This document shows, piece after piece, positions 5,204-36,518 of a DNA stretch of 36,518 nt. Positions within the stretch are counted from its first letter, which is position 1, and every line of letters starts with the position of its first letter. The stretch is taken from IMG/VR virus record IMGVR_UViG_2534681766_000005; one strand, given 5' to 3'. Below the pieces are notes generated by a model that was not told the DNA's origin, ran no database searches, and saw only the letters and a program-made list of their open reading frames with translations. Origin of the DNA: a virus. Its lineage: Duplodnaviria > Heunggongvirae > Uroviricota > Caudoviricetes. Position numbers and translations under genes: made by a program.

Positions 5204-5215
5204 CACGCTACCGCC
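5204..5215 (-). promoter_or_regulatory. ops element (RfaH-dependent antitermination signal, JUMPstart) in waaQ leader
   Basis: Plus strand cacgctaccgcc = reverse complement GGCGGTAGCGTG on the waaQ-sense strand, in the untranslated leader upstream of waaQ. Confidence 0.8.
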
Positions 5216-5566
5216 CCAGGCTCAACAGCTACCTGAATACTGATACCGCACTGATATTGACGCGCTAGTGTATCACTTCTTTCGCGGCAATCCGACCCGA
5301 ATGATTTTTAAGCACATTGTTGATTTTCAATAAAGAAATCAATCAAATAAAATCATTAGCAACCATATTCTTTCACTGTTGCTCTGCGATTCCTTCCTGC
5401 ACGTACAGCAGAAATCAATGAATCGCATAAAAATACAAAAAAAGTATAGATGTTCAGCAAGAATTGGCGGGTAAATTGCTATTTAAGTCAAAAACGGGAA
5501 AAGTAATGGTAAAGCCACAGCTAAATACATAGAATCCCCAGCACATCCATAAGTCAGCTATTTACT

Positions 5567-12162: not shown

Positions 12163-13122
12163 TTACCATGCAACCAGCATTCGCTTTACACTCTCTCTCG
12201 CCTGTTGAAAGGCCTCATCCTCAGGGTTGATTTGCAATAACCAGTTTATTCTTCCCTGCAAAGCATAAAGATACGCCGTTGCCTGTGCGTGGAGATCGCC
12301 AGAAGGATCAAGTTCACCACGATGACTAAGATGCGAAATAACGCCATATTTTTGGCACAAATGCACCTCCTGACGCAGCGCCCGGCGCGCTTCACGGGCA
12401 AGCTGTGGCTTGTGATTAACAACAATCCCGGTTACTTGCTGGCGCTTACAGGCAGCTATCAGGCAGCCTTTGCGTTTATTGAGGCTCAGGCCCAGCTCCG
12501 CTAACAATCCGCACACTTTATTTTTAACCTGGCGGGCATTGAAGTGACCTGAAAAGGTCATGTCATCGCAGTAGCGGGTGTAGGTAATTCCCCGAGCCTG
12601 ACACCATTCCCCTATGCGTTCATCAAAACGGCGCATCACAAGATTGGAAATGGCTGGCGAAGTTGGTGCCCCCTGCGGTAACGCGTCGTTATAACAACAA
12701 ATCCAGGTCAGCATGGTTACCACATTACGTGGCAACTGGGCCTGGCGAAACACACGCCAGACCTGTAACCAGCTAATGCTATCGAAAAAGTTTTCGATAT
12801 CGAGTTTCAGGATCTGCGGCTGTTGGCAGTGTGGCTGCGCGTTGCTGACGATTGGGCAACCTGGTCGGTAGGCTGTAGCAAAAGGGGAAAGCGGAAATTG
12901 TGAAAGGACGTTCTTAAGAATGTTGCGCTGTACGGTTTTGAGCAAGTAATCAGGGGCTAACACCAGCCGCTGACCACCGTGGCGTTTAGAAAGAATAATG
13001 CGTCGGTAATGGCGTCCGGCATGATTACTGAGCGCATGCAGTCGCTGTATTTCTTTATCGGCGCTCCAGCCCGGCGAGCCGAACAAATCGAGCGCCAGAA
13101 GGGTTGTCCGGGTAGCATCCAT
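12163..13122 (-). CDS. ret: retron-type reverse transcriptase (RT only, 319 aa)
   Basis: ORF with retron RT hallmarks: LDIENFFDSI, QGAPTSPAISNLV, YTRYCDDMTFSG (YxDD), VTGIVVNHK; preceded by an msr/msd-like structured region; ORF track adds 4 codons from a GTG at 13134. Confidence 0.9.
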   Translation of the reverse strand: MDATRTTLLALDLFGSPGWSADKEIQRLHALSNHAGRHYRRIILSKRHGGQRLVLAPDYLLKTVQRNILKNVLSQFPLSPFATAYRPGCPIVSNAQPHCQQPQILKLDIENFFDSISWLQVWRVFRQAQLPRNVVTMLTWICCYNDALPQGAPTSPAISNLVMRRFDERIGEWCQARGITYTRYCDDMTFSGHFNARQVKNKVCGLLAELGLSLNKRKGCLIAACKRQQVTGIVVNHKPQLAREARRALRQEVHLCQKYGVISHLSHRGELDPSGDLHAQATAYLYALQGRINWLLQINPEDEAFQQARESVKRMLVAW

Positions 13123-13154
13123 TCCACTCTCCACATCACGGCGGCCAAAAGAGG

Positions 13155-13348
13155 CGCCAACAGCGGCAATACCATTAAACCATCCCGAAGGCGCGTAACT
13201 GTACTGAGCGCGTCAGCGCGACGTACGCGAAGCGTACTCAGGTACAATGAAGCGACTTTGGGTATATGGACATACTACTGGCGTTAAGTCAGCGACTCGC
13301 CGACCCTCCCGGCACAAAAGGCCGGAAACGCTATTGCCACTGCTGGCG
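13155..13348 (-). ncRNA. msr-msd: retron msr-msd region, bounded by inverted repeats a1 (13333-13348) and a2 (13155-13170)
   Basis: 16-nt inverted repeats (CGCCAGCAGTGGCAAT / ATTGCCGCUGUUGGCG, two G-U wobbles) flank short hairpins (e.g. CCGGC..GCCGG at 13310-13326) and a dyad-rich segment at 13201-13245; directly upstream of ret on the same strand. Confidence 0.65.
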
Positions 13349-13419
13349 AAAGCAGATTAACACGATATCTTGAAGCGCATCACGCTGCGCACAGCAAAAA
13401 CCCTGCACAGCGCATATTT

Positions 13420-16053: not shown

Positions 16054-16656
16054 ATGAACGAACATCATCAACCTTTTGAAGAGATAAAACTGATTAATGC
16101 AAACGGAGCAGAACAATGGTCAGCAAGACAACTTGGGAAACTACTGGGTTATTCAGAGTATCGTCACTTTATACCTGTATTAACGCGCGCCAAAGAGGCC
16201 TGTGAGAACAGTGGTCACACAATTGATGACCATTTCGAGGAGATCCTCGATATGGTCAAAATTGGCTCAAATGCCAAAAGAGCATTAAAAGACATCGTAC
16301 TCTCCCGCTATGCCTGTTACCTGGTAGTACAAAACGGCGACCCCGCGAAACCGGTCATTGCGGCAGGGCAGACTTATTTTGCTATCCAGACCCGACGGCA
16401 GGAGCTTGCTGACGATGAAGCATTTAAGCAACTTCGTGAAGACGAAAAGCGTCTGTTTCTGAGAAATGAGTTGAAAGAACATAACAAACAATTGGTTGAG
16501 GCAGCACAGCAAGCTAATACCACACACTTTGACGTGGGTAGCAAGGTGAGGCAAACCATTCAGGAACTTGGCGGAACCATGCCTGAGGAGTTGCCGACCC
16601 CGCAGGTCAGCATCAAGCAGTTGGAAAACAGTGTAAAAATTACAGAGAAGAAATAG
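16054..16656 (+). CDS. dinD: DNA-damage-inducible protein D
   Basis: ORF MNEHHQPFEEIKLINANGAEQWSARQLGKLLGY... downstream of a LexA box; an in-frame ATG at 16042 is an alternative start; product is about 200 aa. Confidence 0.8.
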   Translation: MNEHHQPFEEIKLINANGAEQWSARQLGKLLGYSEYRHFIPVLTRAKEACENSGHTIDDHFEEILDMVKIGSNAKRALKDIVLSRYACYLVVQNGDPAKPVIAAGQTYFAIQTRRQELADDEAFKQLREDEKRLFLRNELKEHNKQLVEAAQQANTTHFDVGSKVRQTIQELGGTMPEELPTPQVSIKQLENSVKITEKK

Positions 16657-16946: not shown

Positions 16947-19353
<2,407 letters not shown>

Positions 19354-19372
19354 TCACAGGCAAATGCGGAAA

Positions 19373-23278: not shown

Positions 23279-25360
23279 ATGAAAGGTCGCCTGTTAGATG
23301 CTGTCCCACTCAGTTCCCTAACGGGCGTTGGCGCAGCACTTAGTAACAAACTGGCGAAAATCAACCTGCATACCGTGCAGGATCTACTCTTACACCTTCC
23401 CCTGCGCTACGAAGATCGCACCCATCTCTACCCCATCGGAGAACTACTGCCGGGCGTTTATGCCACGGTGGAAGGCGAAGTGCTGAACTGCAATATCTCC
23501 TTCGGCGGTCGGCGGATGATGACCTGCCAGATCAGCGACGGTTCCGGCATCCTCACCATGCGCTTTTTCAATTTCAGCGCGGCAATGAAAAATAGCCTGG
23601 CGACGGGCCGCCGTGTACTGGCTTATGGCGAAGCAAAGCGCGGTAAATATGGTGCGGAGATGATCCACCCGGAATACCGCGTGCAGGGCGATCTCAGCAC
23701 GCCAGAATTACAGGAAACGCTCACGCCGGTTTATCCAACAACGGAAGGCGTAAAGCAGGCCACGCTGCGTAAATTAACCGACCAGGCGCTGGATCTGCTC
23801 GACACCTGCGCCATTGAAGAACTCCTGCCGCCGGAACTGTCACAAGGAATGATGACGCTACCGGAAGCGTTGCGCACTTTGCACCGCCCGCCGCCGACGC
23901 TACAGCTTAGCGATCTGGAAACCGGGCAGCATCCGGCGCAACGTCGTCTGATTCTGGAAGAACTGCTGGCGCACAACCTCAGCATGTTAGCCTTACGTGC
24001 CGGAGCACAGCGTTTTCATGCCCAGCCGCTGAGCGCCAATGACGCGCTGAAAAATAAACTCCTCGCCGCCTTACCGTTCAAGCCAACGGGCGCACAGGCA
24101 CGCGTAGTGGCGGAGATCGAGCATGATATGGCGCTGGATGTTCCAATGATGCGCCTGGTGCAGGGCGATGTAGGTTCCGGTAAAACACTGGTCGCCGCCC
24201 TCGCCGCGCTGCGTGCGATTGCCCACGGCAAACAGGTGGCCCTGATGGCACCAACCGAATTACTCGCCGAGCAGCACGCCAATAACTTCCGCAACTGGTT
24301 TGCACCGCTCGGTATCGAAGTGGGCTGGCTCGCCGGTAAGCAGAAAGGTAAAGCGCGACTGGCACAGCAGGAAGCCATCGCCAGCGGTCAGGTGCAGATG
24401 ATTGTCGGTACACACGCCATCTTCCAGGAACAGGTGCAGTTTAACGGTCTGGCGCTGGTGATTATCGACGAACAGCATCGTTTTGGCGTGCATCAGCGTC
24501 TGGCATTGTGGGAGAAAGGCCAGCAGCAGGGCTTCCATCCGCATCAGTTGATCATGACCGCCACGCCGATCCCCCGCACGCTGGCAATGACGGCGTATGC
24601 CGATCTCGATACCTCGGTGATAGATGAGCTGCCGCCAGGCCGCACGCCAGTGACTACGGTCGCTATTCCTGATCCCCGCCGTACCGACATCATTGACCGC
24701 GTGCGCCACGCCTGCATGACTGAAGGTCGTCAGGCGTACTGGGTTTGTACGTTGATTGAAGAGTCAGAGTTACTGGAAGCGCAGGCGGCGGAAGCTACCT
24801 GGGAAGAGTTGAAACTGGCGCTACCAGAATTGAATGTTGGCCTGGTACACGGGCGGATGAAACCAGCCGAGAAACAGGCGGTGATGGCGTCGTTTAAACA
24901 AGGTGAGCTACAACTGCTGGTTGCCACTACCGTTATTGAAGTCGGCGTTGATGTGCCTAACGCCAGTCTGATGATTATCGAAAACCCTGAGCGTCTGGGT
25001 CTAGCGCAGTTACACCAGCTGCGCGGGCGCGTAGGTCGTGGCGCGGTGGCTTCTCACTGCGTGCTGCTCTACAAAACGCCGCTCTCCAAAACGGCGCAAA
25101 TTCGCCTGCAAGTGCTGCGCGACAGTAACGACGGTTTTGTGATTGCGCAAAAAGATCTGGAGATTCGCGGCCCTGGCGAATTGTTAGGCACGCGTCAGAC
25201 GGGTAATGCTGAATTTAAAGTGGCGGATTTACTGCGCGATCAGGCGATGATCCCGGAAGTTCAGCGCCTGGCGCGACATATTCACGAACGTTACCCACAA
25301 CAAGCAAAAGCCCTGATAGAACGCTGGATGCCGGAGACGGAACGTTACTCCAACGCATGA
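23279..25360 (+). CDS. recG: ATP-dependent DNA helicase RecG
   Basis: From ATG 23279: MKGRLLDAVPLSSLTGVGAALSNKLAKINLHTVQDLL...; Walker A GDVGSGKT, DEQH box, helicase C motifs; 693 aa. Confidence 0.95.
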   Translation: MKGRLLDAVPLSSLTGVGAALSNKLAKINLHTVQDLLLHLPLRYEDRTHLYPIGELLPGVYATVEGEVLNCNISFGGRRMMTCQISDGSGILTMRFFNFSAAMKNSLATGRRVLAYGEAKRGKYGAEMIHPEYRVQGDLSTPELQETLTPVYPTTEGVKQATLRKLTDQALDLLDTCAIEELLPPELSQGMMTLPEALRTLHRPPPTLQLSDLETGQHPAQRRLILEELLAHNLSMLALRAGAQRFHAQPLSANDALKNKLLAALPFKPTGAQARVVAEIEHDMALDVPMMRLVQGDVGSGKTLVAALAALRAIAHGKQVALMAPTELLAEQHANNFRNWFAPLGIEVGWLAGKQKGKARLAQQEAIASGQVQMIVGTHAIFQEQVQFNGLALVIIDEQHRFGVHQRLALWEKGQQQGFHPHQLIMTATPIPRTLAMTAYADLDTSVIDELPPGRTPVTTVAIPDPRRTDIIDRVRHACMTEGRQAYWVCTLIEESELLEAQAAEATWEELKLALPELNVGLVHGRMKPAEKQAVMASFKQGELQLLVATTVIEVGVDVPNASLMIIENPERLGLAQLHQLRGRVGRGAVASHCVLLYKTPLSKTAQIRLQVLRDSNDGFVIAQKDLEIRGPGELLGTRQTGNAEFKVADLLRDQAMIPEVQRLARHIHERYPQQAKALIERWMPETERYSNA

Positions 25361-26211
25361 CCAGACTCATCACAAGACAAGTCACGCAGTAAATCTTCAA
25401 TCTGGATAGTGAGGATATCCATTGCCTCATACGCATCCTGTGCAATTCGCGCCGCCATTGCGCCTTCCGGTTCACCACGCAGAATTTCAGCCGCTGCCTG
25501 TACGCCAGCCACAATCATTTCAGGTGTTAACATTTGGCGAAGAAAAGCGCGATTATCAGAGGACCAGCCATCTTTATGGCCTAATGGATGCCCCCAGCCT
25601 ATCCATTCTTGCGACCATAACGGATTGGCTTCTATGGGATAAATTAGATGCGCGGCATACTGAATAGCACACACCGCTTTTCCTGGCGTATCCAGCGCCC
25701 ACCAGCGCGACCAGAGAGAACGAATTAACGGCGCGGCCCCACCCAGAGTATTGAACACCGCCAGCCAGCAAAGAACGTTATTGAAACCACGCTCGTTATC
25801 CATACGCTGCAACGCGGTGTCCAGTAAAAATTGCCGTACCTGCTGGCGTTGGGAAGCATTCATCATCTCCTGCCAGAGATAGGGCCGACACAATGCCTTC
25901 ATTAAGGATTCTTCGAAGTGATCACCATAACCGCCAGCTAAAACGGTTTCATGCCATTGCGCCAGGCAGAGCGGAAACAGATAGCGAAACAACTCTATTT
26001 GCATCGGTTCGTTATAAACGAGATTGAGTACATAGTAAGCACTCAAATCCCATTCGCTGATCTGCTGCCACTCTTTAGCCGCCAGCGCCTTGAGTTCGGC
26101 ATCTGCGTAATCAAATTCCGTTTCCCATACACAGAGCACTGGCGGCTCATCACCAAAAATATGGCGACAGTGTTCACGTAGCGTTTCCGGTTCCTTCCGA
26201 CGCTTTTTCAT
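25345..26211 (-). CDS. hypothetical protein, 288 aa, Trp-rich, no recognised domain
   Basis: Long ORF with ATG at 26209-26211, 2 nt after the gltS stop (26214-26216) on the same strand; 3' end overlaps recG stop by 16 bp; no TM segments evident. Confidence 0.55.
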   Translation of the reverse strand: MKKRRKEPETLREHCRHIFGDEPPVLCVWETEFDYADAELKALAAKEWQQISEWDLSAYYVLNLVYNEPMQIELFRYLFPLCLAQWHETVLAGGYGDHFEESLMKALCRPYLWQEMMNASQRQQVRQFLLDTALQRMDNERGFNNVLCWLAVFNTLGGAAPLIRSLWSRWWALDTPGKAVCAIQYAAHLIYPIEANPLWSQEWIGWGHPLGHKDGWSSDNRAFLRQMLTPEMIVAGVQAAAEILRGEPEGAMAARIAQDAYEAMDILTIQIEDLLRDLSCDESGHALE

Positions 26212-27698: not shown

Positions 27699-29090
27699 AT
27701 GTCTGTTTCCCCCCTCGAGTCAGAAAATGCGCAACCGGTTGCGCAGACTCAAAACAGCGAACTGATTTACCGTCTTGAAGATCGTCCGCCGCTTCCTCAA
27801 ACCCTGTTTGCCGCCTGTCAGCATCTGCTGGCGATGTTCGTTGCGGTGATCACGCCAGCGCTATTAATCTGCCAGGCGCTGGGTTTACCGGCACAAGACA
27901 CGCAACACATTATTAGTATGTCGCTGTTTGCCTCCGGTGTGGCATCGATTATTCAAATTAAGGCCTGGGGTCCGGTTGGCTCCGGGCTGTTGTCTATTCA
28001 GGGCACCAGCTTCAACTTTGTTGCCCCGCTGATTATGGGCGGTACCGCGCTGAAAACCGGTGGTGCTGATGTTCCTACCATGATGGCGGCTTTGTTCGGC
28101 ACGTTGATGCTGGCAAGTTGCACCGAGATGGTGCTCTCCCGCGTTCTGCATCTGGCGCGCCGCATTATTACGCCGCTGGTTTCTGGCGTTGTGGTGATGA
28201 TTATCGGCCTGTCGCTAATTCAGGTTGGGTTAACGTCCATTGGCGGCGGTTACGCAGCCATGAGCGATAACACCTTCGGCGCACCGAAAAATCTGCTGCT
28301 GGCAGGCGTGGTCTTAGCCTTAATTATCCTGCTTAACCGTCAACGTAACCCTTACTTACGCGTGGCCTCACTGGTGATTGCGATGGCGGCCGGATATGCG
28401 CTGGCGTGGTTTATGGGCATGTTGCCAGAAAGCAACGAACCGATGACGCAAGAACTGATTATGGTGCCAACGCCGCTCTATTACGGTCTTGGCATTGAAT
28501 GGAGTCTGCTGCTGCCGCTGATGCTGGTCTTTATGATCACTTCGCTGGAAACCATTGGCGATATCACGGCGACCTCTGACGTTTCCGAACAGCCAGTGTC
28601 CGGTCCGCTGTACATGAAACGCCTGAAAGGCGGCGTGCTGGCAAACGGCCTGAACTCGTTTGTTTCGGCGGTGTTTAACACCTTCCCGAACTCCTGCTTC
28701 GGGCAAAACAACGGAGTGATCCAGTTGACTGGTGTTGCCAGCCGCTATGTCGGTTTTGTCGTCGCGCTGATGTTGATCGTGCTGGGTCTGTTCCCGGCAG
28801 TGAGCGGTTTTGTACAACACATTCCAGAACCGGTTCTGGGCGGCGCAACGCTTGTAATGTTTGGCCCCATCGCCGCCTCCGGTGTGCGTATCGTTTCTCG
28901 TGAGCCGCTGAACCGTCGGGCGATTCTGATTATCGCGCTGTCGCTGGCGGTTGGTCTGGGCGTGTCTCAGCAGCCGCTGATTTTGCAGTTTGCCCCTGAA
29001 TGGCTGAAAAACCTGCTCTCCTCCGGGATCGCCGCGGGCGGTATTACTGCCATCGTGCTGAATCTGATTTTCCCACCAGAAAAACAGTAA
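27699..29090 (+). CDS. xanP: xanthine permease (NCS2 family)
   Basis: [53 protein letters not shown]... 463 aa from this start; multi-TM nucleobase:cation symporter-2 type. Confidence 0.9.
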
Positions 29091-29210
29091 TTCACTGGCG
29101 GCGGTAAGATAATTACCGCCGCAGTCTCACCTCTTTCCCCATTCCCGCCTTGAGGATTGCGCGTAAATCGTGCATAACTCCCTTATGTGCATTTCACGGG
29201 ATGGAAGACC

Positions 29211-30920
29211 ATGAAATTTATTGGGAAGCTGCTTCTCTACATTCTCATCGCTCTGTTAGTGGTGATCGCTGGCCTCTATTTTCTTCTGCAAACCCGCTGG
29301 GGAGCAGAACATATCAGCGCATGGGTTTCCGAGAATAGCGACTATCATCTGGCCTTCGGGGCGATGGATCACCGTTTTTCCGCGCCATCTCATATCGTGC
29401 TGGAGAACGTCACGTTTGGTCGTGATGGTCAGCCCGCGACCCTGGTGGCAAAAAGTGTCGACATTGCGCTAAGCAGTCGGCAACTGACCGAACCACGCCA
29501 TGTCGATACCATCCTGCTGGAAAACGGGACGCTGAATCTCACCGACCAGACCGCGCCGCTACCGTTCAAAGCCGATCGTCTGCAACTGCATGATATGGCG
29601 TTTAATAGCCCGAATAGCGAATGGAAACTGAGCGCGCAGCGGGTAAATGGCGGCGTGGTTCCGTGGTCACCAGAAGCCGGTAAAGTGCTGGGTACGAAGG
29701 CGCAGATTCAGTTTAGTGCCGGATCGCTTTCGCTCAATGATGTTCCTGCCACCAATGTACTGATTGAAGGCAGTATTGATAATGATCGCGTTACGCTGAC
29801 TAACCTGGGTGCCGACATCGCCCGCGGGACATTAACCGGAAACGCGCAGCGTAACGCCGACGGCAGCTGGCAAGTGGAAAACCTGCGCATGGCGGATATA
29901 CGTCTACAAAGCGAAAAATCGCTAACCGACTTCTTTGCGCCATTACGCTCTGTCCCGTCGTTGCAGATTGGTCGCCTGGAAGTGATCGATGCTCGTTTGC
30001 AAGGTCCGGACTGGGCGGTGACCGACCTCGATCTCAGCTTGCGCAACATGACCTTCAGTAAAGATGACTGGCAGACACAGGAAGGCAAACTGTCGATGAA
30101 CGCTAGCGAGTTCATTTATGGTTCGCTGCATTTATTTGACCCGATTATAAACGCGGAATTTTCCCCGCAGGGCGTAGCGCTGCGCCAGTTCACCAGCCGC
30201 TGGGAAGGGGGTATGGTCAGAACGTCAGGGAACTGGCTGCGTGACGGGAAAACGTTGATCCTTGATGATGCGGCAATTGCCGGGCTGGAATATACCTTGC
30301 CGAAAAACTGGCAACAGTTGTGGATGGAAACGACACCCGGTTGGTTAAACAGCCTGCAACTGAAGAGATTTAGCGCCAGCCGCAATCTGATCATTGATAT
30401 CGACCCTGACTTCCCGTGGCAGCTCACCGCGCTCGATGGTTACGGTGCCAACCTGACGCTGGTTACCGATCATAAATGGGGCGTCTGGAGTGGCTCGGCG
30501 AATCTGAATGCCGCCGCCGCGACATTCAATCGTGTTGATGTTCGTCGCCCGTCGCTGGCGCTGACCGCCAACAGCAGCACGGTGAATATCAGCGAACTGA
30601 GTGCATTTACTGAAAAAGGCATTCTGGAAGCCACCGCCAGCGTATCCCAAACGCCACAACGTCAGACCCATATCAGTCTGAACGGACGCGGTGTTCCGGT
30701 GAATATTCTGCAACAGTGGGGATGGCCTGAGTTACCCATAACTGGCGATGGCAATATTCAACTGGTTGCCAGCGGTGCGATTCAGGCCAATGCCACGCTG
30801 AAACCTACCGTTAACGGGCAACTCCACGCCGTAAATGCTGAAAAGCAGCAAGTGACTCAAACCATGAATGCGGGCGTCGTTTCCAGTAGCGAAGTTACAT
30901 CGACAGAGCCGGTGCAGTAA
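29211..30920 (+). CDS. yicH: AsmA-family protein YicH
   Basis: From ATG 29211: MKFIGKLLLYILIALLVVIAGLYFLLQTRWGAEHISAWV... N-terminal TM anchor, 569 aa. Confidence 0.88.
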   Translation: MKFIGKLLLYILIALLVVIAGLYFLLQTRWGAEHISAWVSENSDYHLAFGAMDHRFSAPSHIVLENVTFGRDGQPATLVAKSVDIALSSRQLTEPRHVDTILLENGTLNLTDQTAPLPFKADRLQLHDMAFNSPNSEWKLSAQRVNGGVVPWSPEAGKVLGTKAQIQFSAGSLSLNDVPATNVLIEGSIDNDRVTLTNLGADIARGTLTGNAQRNADGSWQVENLRMADIRLQSEKSLTDFFAPLRSVPSLQIGRLEVIDARLQGPDWAVTDLDLSLRNMTFSKDDWQTQEGKLSMNASEFIYGSLHLFDPIINAEFSPQGVALRQFTSRWEGGMVRTSGNWLRDGKTLILDDAAIAGLEYTLPKNWQQLWMETTPGWLNSLQLKRFSASRNLIIDIDPDFPWQLTALDGYGANLTLVTDHKWGVWSGSANLNAAAATFNRVDVRRPSLALTANSSTVNISELSAFTEKGILEATASVSQTPQRQTHISLNGRGVPVNILQQWGWPELPITGDGNIQLVASGAIQANATLKPTVNGQLHAVNAEKQQVTQTMNAGVVSSSEVTSTEPVQ

Positions 30921-30971
30921 ACATCAATCTCGCCGGGTACGACTCAGACGTACCCGGCATTCTTCAATAGA

Positions 30972-33290
30972 TTACAACGTAATTGTCAGCGCATTCCCTT
31001 GAGGCGTCACCACCAGCCCCTGCTCACTTTCAGCCTGCGAACCGCCTTGCAGACCATTTACTTTCACAACATTGCGCAGGCACAGTGTCCAGTTCTTCGC
31101 CTCGCCCGCACCAGTCACAGTAATCGTGTTGCCAGTACGTGCTGCTTTTAGAGTAAAGATCACCGAACCGTCAGCAGCGGGCACTTCACAGACGGCTTCA
31201 TGCCCGTCTTGCAGATTAAAGAGGTGGAATGCCGTGCCTTCGTGCCACGCGTAATCGGGACGTTGATCGTTGTTGCCCAGCGCCAGTAGGGTGTTATCAC
31301 GCACATAAATGGGCAGACTCAGGAAGCTGTGCTGCTGTTTATGCCAGCGACTACCGTCGAGCTCATCGTTGTGCCACAGGTGTGTCCAGCGACCTTCTGG
31401 CAGGTAGAACTGCACATCGCCCGCTTCAGTGAACACCGGAGCAACCATCACGTTGTCGCCTAACATGTATTGACGGTCAAGGTAATCACAAGCCGGATCG
31501 TCCGGGAACTCCATCATCATGGCCCGCATCATCGGCGTACCCCGCGCGTTTGCACGCGCAGCTTCACGATACAGATACGGCATCATGCGGCATTTCAGTT
31601 GCGTGAAGAAGCGCACCACATCACAGGACTCATCATCATAGGCCCACGGCACACGATAAGATTTACTGCCATGTAAACGGCTATGGCTGGAGAGCAAACC
31701 AAACGCGCACCAGCGTTTGTAAACGTGTGCCGGAGCGGTATTTTCAAAGCCGCCGATATCGTGGCTCCAGAAGCCAAAACCTGAAAGGCCAATAGACAAA
31801 CCACCGCGCAGGCTTTCCGCCATTGATTCGTAGTTAGCGTAACAATCGCCACCCCAGTGTACCGGGAATTTCTGCGCACCGACGGAGGCCGAGCGGGCAA
31901 ACAAGACAGCTTCTTCCTCACCAACGGTGTCCTTGAGCACGTTCCACACCAGTTCGTTGTAGATGTACGCATAATGGTTATGCATTTTCTGCGGATCGGA
32001 ACCGTCAAACCACTGAACATCAGTTGGGATACGTTCGCCAAAGTCGGTCTTAAAGCAATCAACGCCCATCGCGACCAGACCTTTCAGTTTGTCGGCGTAC
32101 CATTTGCAAGCATCCGGATTGGTAAAGTCATAAATCGCCAGACCTGGCTGCCATTTATCCCACTGCCATAGCGAACCGTCCGGGCGTTTGAGTAAATAGC
32201 CTTTCTCTTGTAACTCTTTAAAGACGGGGGATTTTTGACCGATATAGGGGTTAATCCAGACGCAGATTTTCAGCCCTTTCGCTTTCAGGCGGCGGATCAT
32301 CCCTTCCGGGTCAGGGAAAGTCAGCGGGTCCCACTCAAAATCGCACCACTGGAAGGCTTTCATCCAGAAACAGTCAAAGTGGAAAACATGCAGCGGCAGA
32401 TTGCGTTCCGCCATACCATCGATAAAGCTGTTTACCGTCGCTTCGTCGTAGTTGGTGGTAAATGAAGTGGTTAGCCACAGGCCGAAGGACCACGCGGGCG
32501 GCAGCGCCGGACGACCAGTAAAGCGGGTATAACGATCAAGTACCGCTTTCGACGTCGGGCCGTCGATAACAAAGTATTCGAGATATTCACTCTCAACGCT
32601 GAACTGCACTTTGGAGACTTTCTCCGATCCCACTTCAAAAGAGACACACTGGGGATGATTGACCAGTACCCCATAACCACGGTTAGTCATGTAGAACGGG
32701 ATATTTTTATACGCCTGTTCAGTACTTGTGCCGCCGTCCCGGTTCCAGGTCTCTACCGTCTGGCCATTGCGCACCAGGGCAGTAAAGCGCTCTCCCAGAC
32801 CGTAAACTGTTTCGCCAACGCCAAGATCAAGCCGCTCAAACATATAATTGCGTTGATTATTCGTGTCCTGCACGTAGCCATTATTTTTCACCTGACTACC
32901 GGTAATACGTTCGCCGTTGCGCAGAAAATCCAGTGACCAGAACTCATCTTTGCTGACACGCGCGCTTAAGTTGCCACTTTTAAACTCAGCATAACGTTCT
33001 GTGTTTTCGATTGTGACCTTCACGTCCTGCAAAATATTGAGCGGATAATGAGGACCGTTATTCAGCGCCCCCTGAAAATGCTCAATCCGCACACCGACAA
33101 TACCTTCCTGTGGGGAGAAAAAGCGCAGCGTAAATAAAGGCGTATCAAGCTGCCAGGTACGTTCACGCACATCACGGGGGGCAGCATAGACCCCCATTTC
33201 ATTACCCTGCTGTTCAACCTCGAATACCTGAAGCGGGTGAATCAAATTGAGGCCAGGTTGAATCAACCAGTTTCCATCGCTAATTTTCAT
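30972..33290 (-). CDS. yicI: alpha-xylosidase YicI (glycoside hydrolase family 31)
   Basis: 772-aa [53 protein letters not shown]... with GH31-type catalytic region (WINPY, KTDFGE). Confidence 0.93.
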
Positions 33291-33299
33291 TGCCGTTCC

Positions 33300-34682
33300 T
33301 TAGTTCTGCACTTCTTGAGAGGTGAATTGTTGCTGGCAACGGCGTTTACCCTGAGCCAGCTGTTCCATAACGGTTTTCAGATTGTGCGTCGTGAGTGAGT
33401 AGTAGCGTTTAGCGATAATCGCGCTCAGCAAATAACAGATCGCCGGAACAATCGTGAATAGCGCAATAATGATGCTAATCGTGGCGCTGTTCTGCGCTTT
33501 TTCTGCCGCATCATATCCGCCATAAGCCAGCATCCAGCCGATAAGAGCGCCGCCGAAGGCCAACCCCAGTTTGAGCACAAACAGCGTGCCAGCAAAACTG
33601 ATCCCGGTCAGGCGTTTACCATTGCACCACTCGCCGTAGTCGACGGTATCGGACATCATTACCCACTGGATAGGTGTCACCAGTTGATGCAACACACCAA
33701 TCACGAAGATGAAGACAAACATAGTGATGCTGGCCTGCATGGGAACAAAGAACATCGCGAGGCTAATCACTGCCAGCAGGGCGTTCGTCCACCAGAAGAT
33801 AGTGACTTTACATTTCCAGTCGGTCAGAGGTTTTGCCAGTGCGGAACCAATCAGGTTACCCACGCAATAAGTGGTGAGAAAAGCGACAAACACTTCCGGC
33901 GTGCCCAAAATCCATGTGACGTAATACATCATCGCCCCACCGCGTACGCACACCGCCAGGATATTGAAAATGGTTAGTAAACCGACAATCCGCCACTGGT
34001 CGTTTTGCCAGATATCACGTAAATCTTCCCGCATAGACGTTGTTGTAGGTGGTGCTTCAACGCGTTCTTTAGTGGTGAAGAAACAAAATGCCAGCATCAT
34101 GAATGCCACCACGGAAAGGACCGCGATACCGCCCTGGAAACCGAGTGGTTTATTATCACCGCCAATTAAATTAACCAGTGGCATCATCAGAACAGTAGAA
34201 AGCATGCCTCCCGCGGTCGCCAGCACAAAACGCCAGGATTGCAGCGAGATACGCTGAGTCGGGTCATTGGTGATTACACCACCCAATGCGCAGTAAGGGA
34301 TATTGACGACGGTATAAAGTAAGGTAAGTAGGGTGTAAGTAATTGCTGCATAGATCATTTTGCCGTTCATACTGAGATCTGGCGTGCTATAGGCCAGTAC
34401 ACAGACGATCCCGAATGGCAGTGCGCCAAACAGTACCCACGGACGAAATTTACCCCAGCGAGAGCGCGTTCGATCGGCCAACAACCCCATGCAAGGATCG
34501 GAAATCGCATCCAGTGCACGAGCGACCAAAAACATGGTTCCGACAAAACCGGCAGGAATGCCAAAAATATCGGTATAAAAGAACATCATATATAACATTA
34601 CGTTATCGAAAATAATGTGGCTGGCGGCGTCTCCCATGCCATAACCAATTTTCTCTTTAACGGACAACACTTCACTCTTCAT
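33300..34682 (-). CDS. yicJ: sugar:cation symporter YicJ (GPH family)
   Basis: From Met-20 of the ORF: MKSEVLSVKEKIGYGMGDAASHIIFDNVMLYMMFFYTDIFGIP... 460 aa, 12-TM MelB-like; forms an operon with yicI. Confidence 0.9.
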   Translation of the reverse strand: MKSEVLSVKEKIGYGMGDAASHIIFDNVMLYMMFFYTDIFGIPAGFVGTMFLVARALDAISDPCMGLLADRTRSRWGKFRPWVLFGALPFGIVCVLAYSTPDLSMNGKMIYAAITYTLLTLLYTVVNIPYCALGGVITNDPTQRISLQSWRFVLATAGGMLSTVLMMPLVNLIGGDNKPLGFQGGIAVLSVVAFMMLAFCFFTTKERVEAPPTTTSMREDLRDIWQNDQWRIVGLLTIFNILAVCVRGGAMMYYVTWILGTPEVFVAFLTTYCVGNLIGSALAKPLTDWKCKVTIFWWTNALLAVISLAMFFVPMQASITMFVFIFVIGVLHQLVTPIQWVMMSDTVDYGEWCNGKRLTGISFAGTLFVLKLGLAFGGALIGWMLAYGGYDAAEKAQNSATISIIIALFTIVPAICYLLSAIIAKRYYSLTTHNLKTVMEQLAQGKRRCQQQFTSQEVQN

Positions 34683-34974
34683 CTGCTTTTCCTTGATGCT
34701 ATAGGGGTGCTGAGACCGATAACGCATTTTGTAAACCATCCCTGTGAGAGCGAATATTCCGATATCTGGTTATTAATTTATGATTCTTGTTTTATGTGAT
34801 CGTGGTAGCGTTAATTCCGCTCATATATCATTGTAAAATATGGGTTTTATATGAACTATAATGCTTTCGTGATAATACGCTGCGTGTATTAGGCGGAAAA
34901 AACTGATCTGGGGGATGTAGAAACTCAAGGAAGTAGCTATAATGCGCCCCGCCTCCATGTAGCAATCGAGGCGC

Positions 34975-35069
34975 GGAAGATCGTCGTCTCCGGTGAGGCG
35001 GCTGGACTTCAAATCCAGTTGGGGCCGCCAGCGGTCCCGGGCAGGTTCGACTCCTGTGATCTTCCGCCA
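34975..35069 (+). tRNA. selC: tRNA-Sec (selenocysteine, UCA anticodon)
   Basis: 95-nt sequence GGAAGATCGTCGTCTCCGGTGAGGCGGCTGGACTTCAAATCCAGTTGGGGCCGCCAGCGGTCCCGGGCAGGTTCGACTCCTGTGATCTTCCGCCA, the canonical E. coli selC product with long variable arm. Confidence 0.97.
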
Positions 35070-35231
35070 AACTTCATCCAGCCAGTTCCGAGACGCTCCA
35101 TAAAACCCTTTATATTCAATATAATGAATAATCATCTTATCCGTAATAGTCCGAGATCGTTTTCCTGAATCCGTGAAAAATATGTATAGTAATGTGTATA
35201 GATTTTTCATACGTAGTTTTCAGTTATACAC

Positions 35232-36404
35232 ATGGCTCTAACCGATATACAGATCAAACGTGCAAAACCACAAGACAAGCCATACACATTGAACGATGGA
35301 CAAGGTCTGTCATTGCTTATCAATCCCGATGGCTCGAAAGGCTGGCGTTTCCGTTTCCGGTTTGCAGGGAAAGCGCGGTTAATGTCATTTGGCAGCTACG
35401 ACTTAGTAAGCCTCGCAGAAGCACGTGAGAAGCGTGATATCGCCCGTAAGCAGGTTGCTAATGGCATTGACCCGGTAGAGGAACGCAAAGCTTTAAGACT
35501 CGCCCAAAAGCTATCAACAGAAAATTCTTTCGAAGCAATATGTCGAGAATGGCATACCAACAAAGCAGACCGCTGGACTGTGGCCTATCGAGAAGAAATC
35601 ATTAAGACATTCGAGCAAGATGTCTTCCCGTTCATTGGTAAACGTCCTATCAGTGAAATCAAACCATTAGAACTGCTTGAAGTATTGCGACGAATAGAGA
35701 AACGAGGAGCACTAGAGAAGACCAGAAAAGTGCGCCAAAGATGCGGTGAGGTCTTTCGTTATGCAATCATAACTGGCCGAGCAGAATATAACCCAGCACC
35801 TGATTTAGCTATCGCTCTGGCCGTTCCTAAGCAAAAACACCACCCATTTTTATCAGCTGAAGAGTTACCTTATTTTATTCGGGATTTGGAAGCATATACC
35901 GGAAGCATCATCACGAAAAATGCGACGAAGATTATGATACTTACTGGTGTAAGGACTCAAGAGATACGCTTTGCAACATGGAGCGAGGTTGACCTTGAGA
36001 AAGGTATTTGGGAAATTCCTGCAGAACGGATGAAGATGCGTAGGCCTCATATTGTTCCTCTTTCTATTCAAGTAATAGAACTCTTTAAGCAGCTCAAGCC
36101 TATCACTGGCCATTACCCATTTATTTTCATTGGCAGGAATAATCGTAGCAAACCAATCTCAAAAGAAAGTGTTTCACAAGTAATTGAGTCGATTGGTTAC
36201 AAAGGACGCGCCACTGGTCATGGGTTCCGACATACCATGTCGACAATACTGCATGAGCAAGGATTTAACAGTGCCTGGATTGAAATGCAATTAGCGCATG
36301 TTGATAAAAATAGTATTCGTGGCACATATAACCATGCATTGTATTTGAAAGGTCGTAAGGAGATGCTATGTTGGTATGCCAACATTTTGTATCCCCTTGT
36401 ATAA
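35232..36404 (+). mobile_element. P4-type tyrosine integrase (390 aa) of a selC-associated genomic island
   Basis: ORF MALTDIQIKRAKPQDKPYTLNDGQGLSLLINPDGSKGWRFRFRFAGKARLMSFGSYDL... with C-terminal catalytic region (GHGFRHTMST..., RGTYNHA); ~160 bp 3' of tRNA-Sec; visibly AT-richer than flanking core genes. Confidence 0.9.
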
Positions 36405-36518
36405 ATTGATACAAGTGCGGTAGCGTTGGCTCCATCCAAAGAAATGGATATGTAATAACATAACAATATTGCACGGAATCTACTATGACTAATACAGTTG
36501 AAGCTATTTTATTTGATT

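Follow-up and report, generated by a model that had tools for sequence, protein, structure and literature searches.

The stretch of DNA analysed here (36,518 nucleotides of the IMG/VR virus record IMGVR_UViG_2534681766_000005, in the following called the window) very probably ends on the left attachment site (attL) of a P4-like phage satellite, which is integrated into selC, the gene of the selenocysteine tRNA (tRNA-Sec). A preliminary description of the window had proposed a genomic island at selC. This proposal was borne out by the attL core in the window and its copy at the right attachment site (attR) of related genomes, and it can be refined to a complete P4-like satellite of 11.57 kb.

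The tRNA gene selC (34975-35069, plus strand, anticodon TCA) was determined by ARAGORN as intact and as the sole tRNA of the window, and the Rfam model RF01852 matched positions 34975-35065 over its full length with 83.8 bits compared to a gathering score of 47. In genomes without the element, the homology to the window stops exactly at position 35071 (matches H40-H45, query position 23472). This position is the end of the attL core GACTCCTGTGATCTTCCGCCAAA (35049-35071), which consists of the final 21 nt of selC plus 2 nt, represents the crossover region and the left boundary of the element, and regenerates the 3' end of selC. In six related loci the same sequence recurs as attR, either exactly or with one change, 10.6-11.6 kb downstream. 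This is the arrangement of an integration at the 3' end of a tRNA gene with the core duplicated as a direct repeat.

The AT-rich stretch directly after the core (35072-35231, plus strand), which is identical across the genomes CV261, MLI107, 0-4 and CFIAFB20180540 (loci L001-L004), comprises the leader of the integrase gene and the P' arm of the attachment site. The GC content of this stretch amounts to 33%, and that of the whole spacer of 162 bp between the tRNA and the integrase gene (35070-35231) to 33.3%. Within the P' arm, a candidate arm-type integrase-binding site, TATGTATAGTAATGTGTATAGAT (35181-35203, plus strand), was recognised, comprising two tandem ATGT(G)TATAR units. This 23-nt unit occurs once in the window, compared to an expectation of 0 from 100 shuffles. 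In the attP reconstituted from CFIAFB20180540, a second, near-identical copy lies 56-78 bp before attR. Exactly two copies of the motif, one per arm, were present in six of six selC-integrated elements, and none in P4. The ATGT(G)TATAR repeats are therefore putative arm-type sites for the N-terminal domain of the integrase. A k-mer repeat search returned mostly the crr iterons of P4; of its results, only those ATGT(G)TATAR pairs that lie close to the core were retained as candidate arm sites. Two minus-strand open reading frames (ORFs) at 34821-35210 and 34828-35070, which overlap the tRNA, were treated as chance occurrences.

The integrase gene int (35232-36404, plus strand) encodes a P4-family tyrosine integrase (arm-binding domain type) of 390 aa, which belongs to a selC-specific clade. 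The ORF is of full length and not degenerate. Three Pfam domains were found far above their gathering scores, namely Arm-DNA-bind_3 (residues 3-87, 4.8e-27), Phage_int_M (residues 100-193, 1.4e-36) and Phage_integrase (residues 206-370, 6.8e-27), corresponding to the layout of an N-terminal arm-DNA-binding, a central core-binding and a C-terminal catalytic domain. Compared to the integrase of P4, an identity of 37.1% over 404 aa (E 2.3e-90) was determined, or of 38.8% in a MAFFT alignment, in which the catalytic R, H-x-x-R, H and Y are kept (TGVRTQE, HGFRHT, LAHVDKN and RGTYNH aligned). The identity amounts to 93.1% for the selC integrase of the uropathogenic Escherichia coli (UPEC) strain F11 and to 89.5% for that of O157:H7, and the protein is exactly that of RefSeq WP_001392828.1, which is found on at least 1000 contigs. 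Among 5426 complete E. coli genomes, the integrase clade (at least about 80% nucleotide identity) is present in 457, and the allele with at least 99% identity in 14. In a comparison with phage integrase proteins the best matches were of the Sf6/HK620/CUS-3 type with about 48% identity, which is uninformative on the type of element, and when the DNA of selC and int was searched against a phage collection, the matches were limited to the tRNA and to an integrase fragment of 64 nt. With a value of 0.434, the GC content of the gene lies below that of the whole window (0.505) and of the core genes at 28000-34000 (0.49-0.57). The tRNA-Sec, the AT-rich gap of about 160 bp, the 390-aa P4-family integrase and its lower GC content compared to the neighbouring core genes, all named in the preliminary description, were thus recovered as described. 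Its statement that only the left junction and the integrase are visible holds broadly, except that the next gene already starts at the window end, with 33 nt (36486-36518, plus strand). These encode the first 11 codons (MTNTVEAILFD) of a 444-aa protein, cut by the window end and corresponding to L004 21586-21618, and they are separated from int by a spacer (36405-36485) whose extent follows from the sequence and from the annotation of identical loci.

Positions 34900-36518 were compared by megablast with the 5426 complete E. coli genomes. At least 80% of the query, spanning selC and the integrase, was covered at one place in 470 genomes. Thirteen genomes were 99.9-100% identical over the entire query, and a fourteenth was identical over the first 95%. 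All 14 continue with the same two cargo genes, and the 14 genomes carrying this cargo pair, which occurs in exactly 14 complete genomes, are the same as those carrying the integrase allele. Based on this agreement, the genome from which the window originates would be expected to continue as its 14 relatives do.

The closest genome, CFIAFB20180540 (L004), showed 9 mismatches over 21,619 aligned positions, the region after 33193 being free of them. Its element comprises, in this order, attL, int, a ShosT-like gene, a ShosA-like gene, cos, psu, delta, sid, vis, the icd/cI region, epsilon, orf151, orf106, alpha, crr and attR, followed by the core genes setC-yicL-nlpA. In the annotations of CFIAFB20180540, MLI107 and 0-4, int is followed by a 444-aa 'HAD-IA hydrolase', a 335-aa 'DprA', psu, the ogr/delta gene, a sid-like gene, an AlpA-type helix-turn-helix protein, an Icd-like protein, a derepression protein, two small ORFs and a 777-aa primase-helicase. 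The P4-like core set (int, psu, delta, sid, alpA, ash/epsilon and alpha) in its canonical order was found in all four fetched genomes that carry the ShosTA-like pair (CV261, MLI107, 0-4 and CFIAFB20180540), while the window itself shows int only. From core start to core end, the element of CFIAFB20180540 spans 11.57 kb (about 11.55 kb with one copy of the core), and in six loci the length enclosed by the two att cores is 10.66-11.59 kb. In MLI107 the attR core, which lies after the primase gene, is exact.

A comparison of this element with phage P4 (NC_001609) showed a nucleotide identity of 98.0% over 7.3 kb (L004 24243-31567 and P4 11624-4291). Psu, Delta, Sid, Vis, Epsilon, ORF151, ORF106 and Alpha are 98-100% identical to the P4 proteins and equal in length, with a value of 98.9% for the excisionase Vis. 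The cos sequence of P4, GGCGAGGCGGGGAAAGCAC, is present on the complementary strand between the hotspot and psu (L004 24224-24242), the crr repeats are common to both, and the sizes of 11.57 kb and 11.62 kb are similar. In contrast, the integrase comprises 390 aa compared to about 440 aa for P4 Int and shows an identity of only 37-39%. The attachment core corresponds to the 3' end of selC and the arm repeats are the element's own, both being different from P4, whose integration site is leuX. Furthermore, gop-beta-cII of P4 is exchanged for the ShosT-like/ShosA-like pair, and the ORF of the cI region is annotated as a longer Icd-like protein, unlike in P4. Judged by these alignments, the element is a P4 in which the segment from cos to attP has been swapped for another integration module and another hotspot cargo. 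A P4-type Vis would thus have to cooperate with an integrase that is only 37% identical to P4 Int.

For the integration, the attP core, whose sequence is that of the tRNA-Sec 3' end, would be recombined with selC by the integrase, leaving the tRNA intact and the 23-bp core duplicated at both ends, and the N-terminal arm-binding domain of the integrase would probably act on the ATGT(G)TATAR repeats in both arms. Since the backbone is that of P4, the element would be mobilised by a P2-like helper phage. It would stay dormant until such a helper supplies the late functions, whereupon Epsilon, Delta, Sid and Psu would hijack the helper, the helper capsid would be shrunk and the genome of 11.5 kb would be packaged from cos by the packaging machinery of the helper.

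Several points weigh against this interpretation. The window ends 114 nt past the stop codon of int, so that everything beyond position 36518 was not read in the window and is inferred from the junction-sharing genomes. A consensus scan of the surroundings of int gave no convincing match to a sigma-70 promoter upstream of the gene. Since promoter-like sites were less frequent in this promoter and terminator scan than in shuffled sequence, and since none of them lay upstream of int, no int promoter is claimed here. In addition, of the four ShosTA-carrying loci, three have an attR with a 1-nt change or deletion, and these imperfections might reduce excision.

The altered attR of some carriers would also fit a stranded remnant of an old integration, whose element is absent or has decayed and is immobile, and so would the frameshifted delta gene of MLI107; cryptic P4-like prophages are common. 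Such a remnant is nevertheless extremely improbable. The integrase is of full length with its catalytic residues kept, and in the closest genome the P4 core genes, cos and crr are all intact and 98-100% identical to functional P4. Moreover, the segment comprising int and the cargo is 100% identical in the 14 genomes, which originate from cattle, humans, a dog, a pig, a duck, a monkey and food, while the three genomes compared show a divergence of 0.5-1.3% from the window in the flanking chromosome. This combination of an identical segment across diverse hosts and diverged flanks indicates that int and cargo have recently spread horizontally as a unit. In the preliminary description, two findings had been named that would speak against an island at selC, namely ordinary core genome downstream with no distal att repeat, and a degenerate integrase with no associated cargo. 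Since the repeat of the selC 3' end was found about 11.5 kb downstream in every junction-carrying genome examined, and since the integrase is intact and associated with cargo, neither of them was encountered.

Another explanation would be that the integrase belongs, as recombinase, to a large selC pathogenicity island such as LEE (locus of enterocyte effacement), PAI-I, SHI-2 or LPA, with virulence genes lying just past the window. The gene selC is a documented insertion site of pathogenicity islands (PMC6174562), and in CV261, which has the identical junction, IS66/IS3 and then the LEE genes espF, escF, espB, espD, espA and sepL are located about 14 kb downstream. The same layout of satellite, IS66/IS3 and LEE was observed in O157:H7 behind the 89.5% identical integrase. 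However, in both genomes the satellite has its own attR ahead of the insertion sequences and the LEE. The LEE lies outside attR and therefore represents a neighbouring island in tandem and not the cargo of the integrase in the window. Among the four fetched ShosTA-carrying genomes the LEE is present only in CV261, whereas in CFIAFB20180540, MLI107 and 0-4 the core genes setC, yicL and nlpA follow directly after the 11.5-kb satellite. Most other genomes with the junction resemble the genomes with no LEE in its distance of about 57.65 kb to the start of the record, which would fit the same short insertion. Altogether, a pathogenicity island as the owner of this integrase has a very low probability. 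The nature of the cargo had been left open before as virulence, metabolic or defence; no virulence genes were found between attL and attR in six of six loci, and the two genes following int constitute a ShosTA-like pair, putatively of the defence type.

Two further observations were made on the sequence to the right of attR. In the loci L001 (31742 onward) and L006 (25121 onward), the stretch after attR and before IS66 and the LEE starts with CTTCCTCTTCTGAACTCTCCCGACG, which is partly like the P' arm after attL (CTTCATCCAGCCAGTTCCGAGACG) and unlike the native flank on the setC side (ATGCCTCTCCTGACG). From this resemblance, this stretch of the LEE-bearing genomes may stem from the left end, now decayed, of an older selC island, which would fit a serial tandem integration. 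Between the satellite's attR and the core genes, UPEC F11 has an intact RhuM-family gene (L007 24857-25894), of which a short pseudogene fragment (about 31797-31959) is present in the ShosTA-carrying loci L002-L004, pointing to the residue of an earlier insertion associated with selC.

The two cargo genes are co-oriented and lie 106 bp apart. Compared to the P4 backbone with 55%, their GC content amounts to only 33%. The 444-aa product of the first gene (WP_021501220.1 in L004) contains the Pfam domains HAD_2, Pribosyltran (9e-8, 32 bits compared to a cut-off of 26.3) and Zn_ribbon_Top1, and the phosphoribosyl pyrophosphate (PRPP) loop ILIIDDVITTGSTL is intact. It matched the PADLOC model for ShosT (PDLC03962) with 4.8e-14 and 50.8 bits, compared to 179.8 bits for the reference ShosT. 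The 335-aa product of the second gene contains the Pfam domain DNA_processg_A and matched the PADLOC model for ShosA (PDLC03961) over residues 1-272 with 3.1e-76 and 254.6 bits, which is close to the 284.7 bits of the reference ShosA; with the solved ShosA structure (PDB 9vzo) an E-value of 6.2e-29 was obtained. In the supplement of PMC9122126, the P4 int-psu hotspot loci include the exact pair WP_021501220 and WP_001393214 at least 20 times. Taken together, the cargo is best described as a distant ShosTA-like pair with a predicted anti-phage activity.

Characterised ShosTA structures were available for comparison (PDB 8zvb, 8zva and 9vzo). As described for APEC O1, an avian pathogenic E. coli, ShosT has a HAD-type pyrophosphatase domain at its N-terminus and a phosphoribosyltransferase (PRTase) domain after it (PMC11961720; PMC12961424). 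Phages blocked by this P2-borne system include T7 and lambda. APEC O1 ShosTA and the cargo pair have in common that both consist of two genes, encoding a toxin with a HAD-type and a PRTase domain in the same order and a DprA-like antitoxin. Unlike APEC O1 ShosT, the toxin of the element has an extra C-terminal zinc ribbon of the topoisomerase type and a canonical match to Pfam HAD_2, and the carrier of the pair is a P4-like satellite, whereas that of APEC O1 ShosTA is a P2-like phage.

The weak similarity of the two toxins speaks against the assignment of the cargo. With the full-length 444-aa query, only generic HAD hydrolases were found in the PDB, and with its C-terminal half, ShosT (8zvb) appeared at an E-value of 0.2 behind ordinary PRTases. 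Since the PDB placed the ShosT-like protein poorly, a direct comparison was made with the P2-hotspot ShosTA of strain HB-Coli0, a reference that matches the tested APEC O1 construct (Rousset Table S3). While the antitoxins showed an identity of 31% over 221 aa (E 7e-34), the toxins were similar by BLASTP only in the region of the PRPP loop (27% over 81 aa, E 2e-5), so that no full-length relationship of the 444-aa protein to the characterised ShosT was found. The gene order of toxin before antitoxin is also the reverse of that in the characterised P2-hotspot ShosTA. Due to the weak similarity of the toxins and the reversed order, a defence function of the P4-borne pair is not demonstrated by these data. 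The P4-borne pair was not found among those tested constructs of PMC9122126 that were examined, and the DprA and PRTase system tested there is that of the P2 hotspot.

Since the likeness is confined to the PRPP loop and the pair comprises a zinc ribbon, a canonical HAD domain and a toxin-first order, its substrate, trigger or phage range could differ from those of APEC O1. We consider it conceivable, albeit rather unlikely, that the P4-borne pair represents a mechanistically distinct ShosTA branch and not a simple orthologue, and the extra zinc ribbon could bind nucleic acid.

The marginal similarity of the toxin to characterised ShosT would also be compatible with a cargo of ordinary housekeeping or metabolic genes, i.e. 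a HAD-IA phosphatase and the competence protein DprA. RefSeq names the two proteins 'HAD-IA family hydrolase' and 'DNA-processing protein DprA', a Shosta label is absent, and an NCBIfam dprA model matched the 335-aa protein with 1.4e-47. Both NCBIfam DprA models, however, stay below their curated cut-offs (161.7 compared to 191 for this match and 139 compared to 495 for the other), whereas the score of the PADLOC ShosA model almost reaches that of the reference. Furthermore, a HAD domain fused to a PRTase with an intact PRPP loop is the architecture of ShosT, the cargo sits in the int-psu hotspot, which was shown to be rich in anti-phage systems (PMC9122126), and both its low GC content and its presence in only 14 of 5426 genomes argue against housekeeping genes. 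A housekeeping or metabolic role is accordingly regarded as quite improbable.

By analogy with ShosTA, the pair of the element would confer an abortive-infection-type protection against other phages. Once the action of the antitoxin is lost, the toxin-antitoxin cargo would probably kill or arrest infected cells via their nucleotide metabolism, where the PRTase/pyrophosphatase toxin would disturb purine metabolism and the DprA-like antitoxin would act through repair linked to single-stranded DNA and RecA.

P4-like satellites with a variable hotspot between int and psu, filled with anti-phage systems, have been described (Rousset et al. 2022, PMC9122126), as well as in a 2026 follow-up to Rousset et al., and the literature on this hotspot includes PMC13586616. 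Compared to these satellites, the element shows the same layout with the cargo between int and cos/psu and no structural difference. It is thus of an already known kind, annotated and catalogued, and the exact cargo pair is contained in Rousset et al. 2022. The conservation of the P4-like core and the frequent exchange of integrases between near-identical backbones have been reported as well (Moura de Sousa & Rocha 2021).

Among the individual elements compared, the P4-like prophage at selC of O157:H7 has the same att core, the same arm motif and a P4 backbone, whereas its hotspot cargo consists of a DEAD/DEAH helicase and a small protein and not of a ShosTA-like pair. This prophage beside the LEE is presumably the one known as 933L (Perna et al. 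1998). In CV261, the copy of the element precedes IS66/IS3 and the LEE in tandem, as is the case in O157:H7, while no LEE follows in CFIAFB20180540. The selC satellite of UPEC F11 has the same backbone, with two hypothetical proteins as cargo between int and psu. According to titles cited in PMC6174562 and PMC9122126, the retronphage phiR73 is a P4-like prophage in the selenocystyl tRNA gene, and by these titles (Sun, Inouye & Inouye 1991; Inouye et al. 1991) it is of the same element type and has the same target as the element of the window. The cargo of phiR73 is the retron Ec73, whereas the window-type element carries the ShosTA-like pair, and no reverse transcriptase gene was found in the element of CFIAFB20180540.

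Besides the left end of the satellite, some other features of the window were observed. The sole reverse transcriptase gene of the window (12163-13122, minus strand, 319 aa), which is unrelated to the satellite, lies between pyrE and slmA. It matched the PADLOC model RT_Ec107-like with 7.3e-132 and is named 'reverse transcriptase family protein' in RefSeq. It is probably retron Ec107, which is known from the pyrE-ttk intergenic site. The presumed msr/msd region lies at 13123-13419; no msr/msd family of Rfam was found at the gathering threshold. The gene ligB (17561-19363, minus strand) is apparently disrupted into an ORF of 505 aa (17561-19078) and one of 87 aa (19100-19363); it is annotated as frameshifted in CFIAFB20180540 and forms an intact gene of 1683 nt in other strains. 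For dinD (about 16054-16656, plus strand), a length of 603 nt is annotated in CFIAFB20180540 and MLI107 compared to 825 nt in CV261 and 0-4, and the alignment of the window to the latter two is broken at about 16086-16300, which looks like an indel polymorphism of the 5' end. A JUMPstart RNA element (5204-5242, minus strand, Rfam RF01707, 55.2 bits) between waaA and rfaQ lies upstream of rfaQ and the co-oriented genes of the lipopolysaccharide core, as is expected and ordinary. Just downstream of gltS, an ORF of 867 nt encoding the 'hypothetical protein' WP_000747329.1 (about 25345-26211, minus strand) shares 16 nt with the 3' end of recG and is present in all fetched loci that cover the recG-gltS interval.

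Concerning the biology of selC-integrated elements, a selC integrase is by itself no sign of the LEE or another pathogenicity island, since in six of six inspected loci of this clade it marks the end of a small satellite. As the sole accessory load of the satellite would be anti-phage, its presence would affect the phage susceptibility of the strain and the interactions with P2-like helpers, and not virulence. Furthermore, with a P4 backbone that is 98% identical and a swapped module for integration and hotspot cargo, the element represents a clear case of modular exchange.

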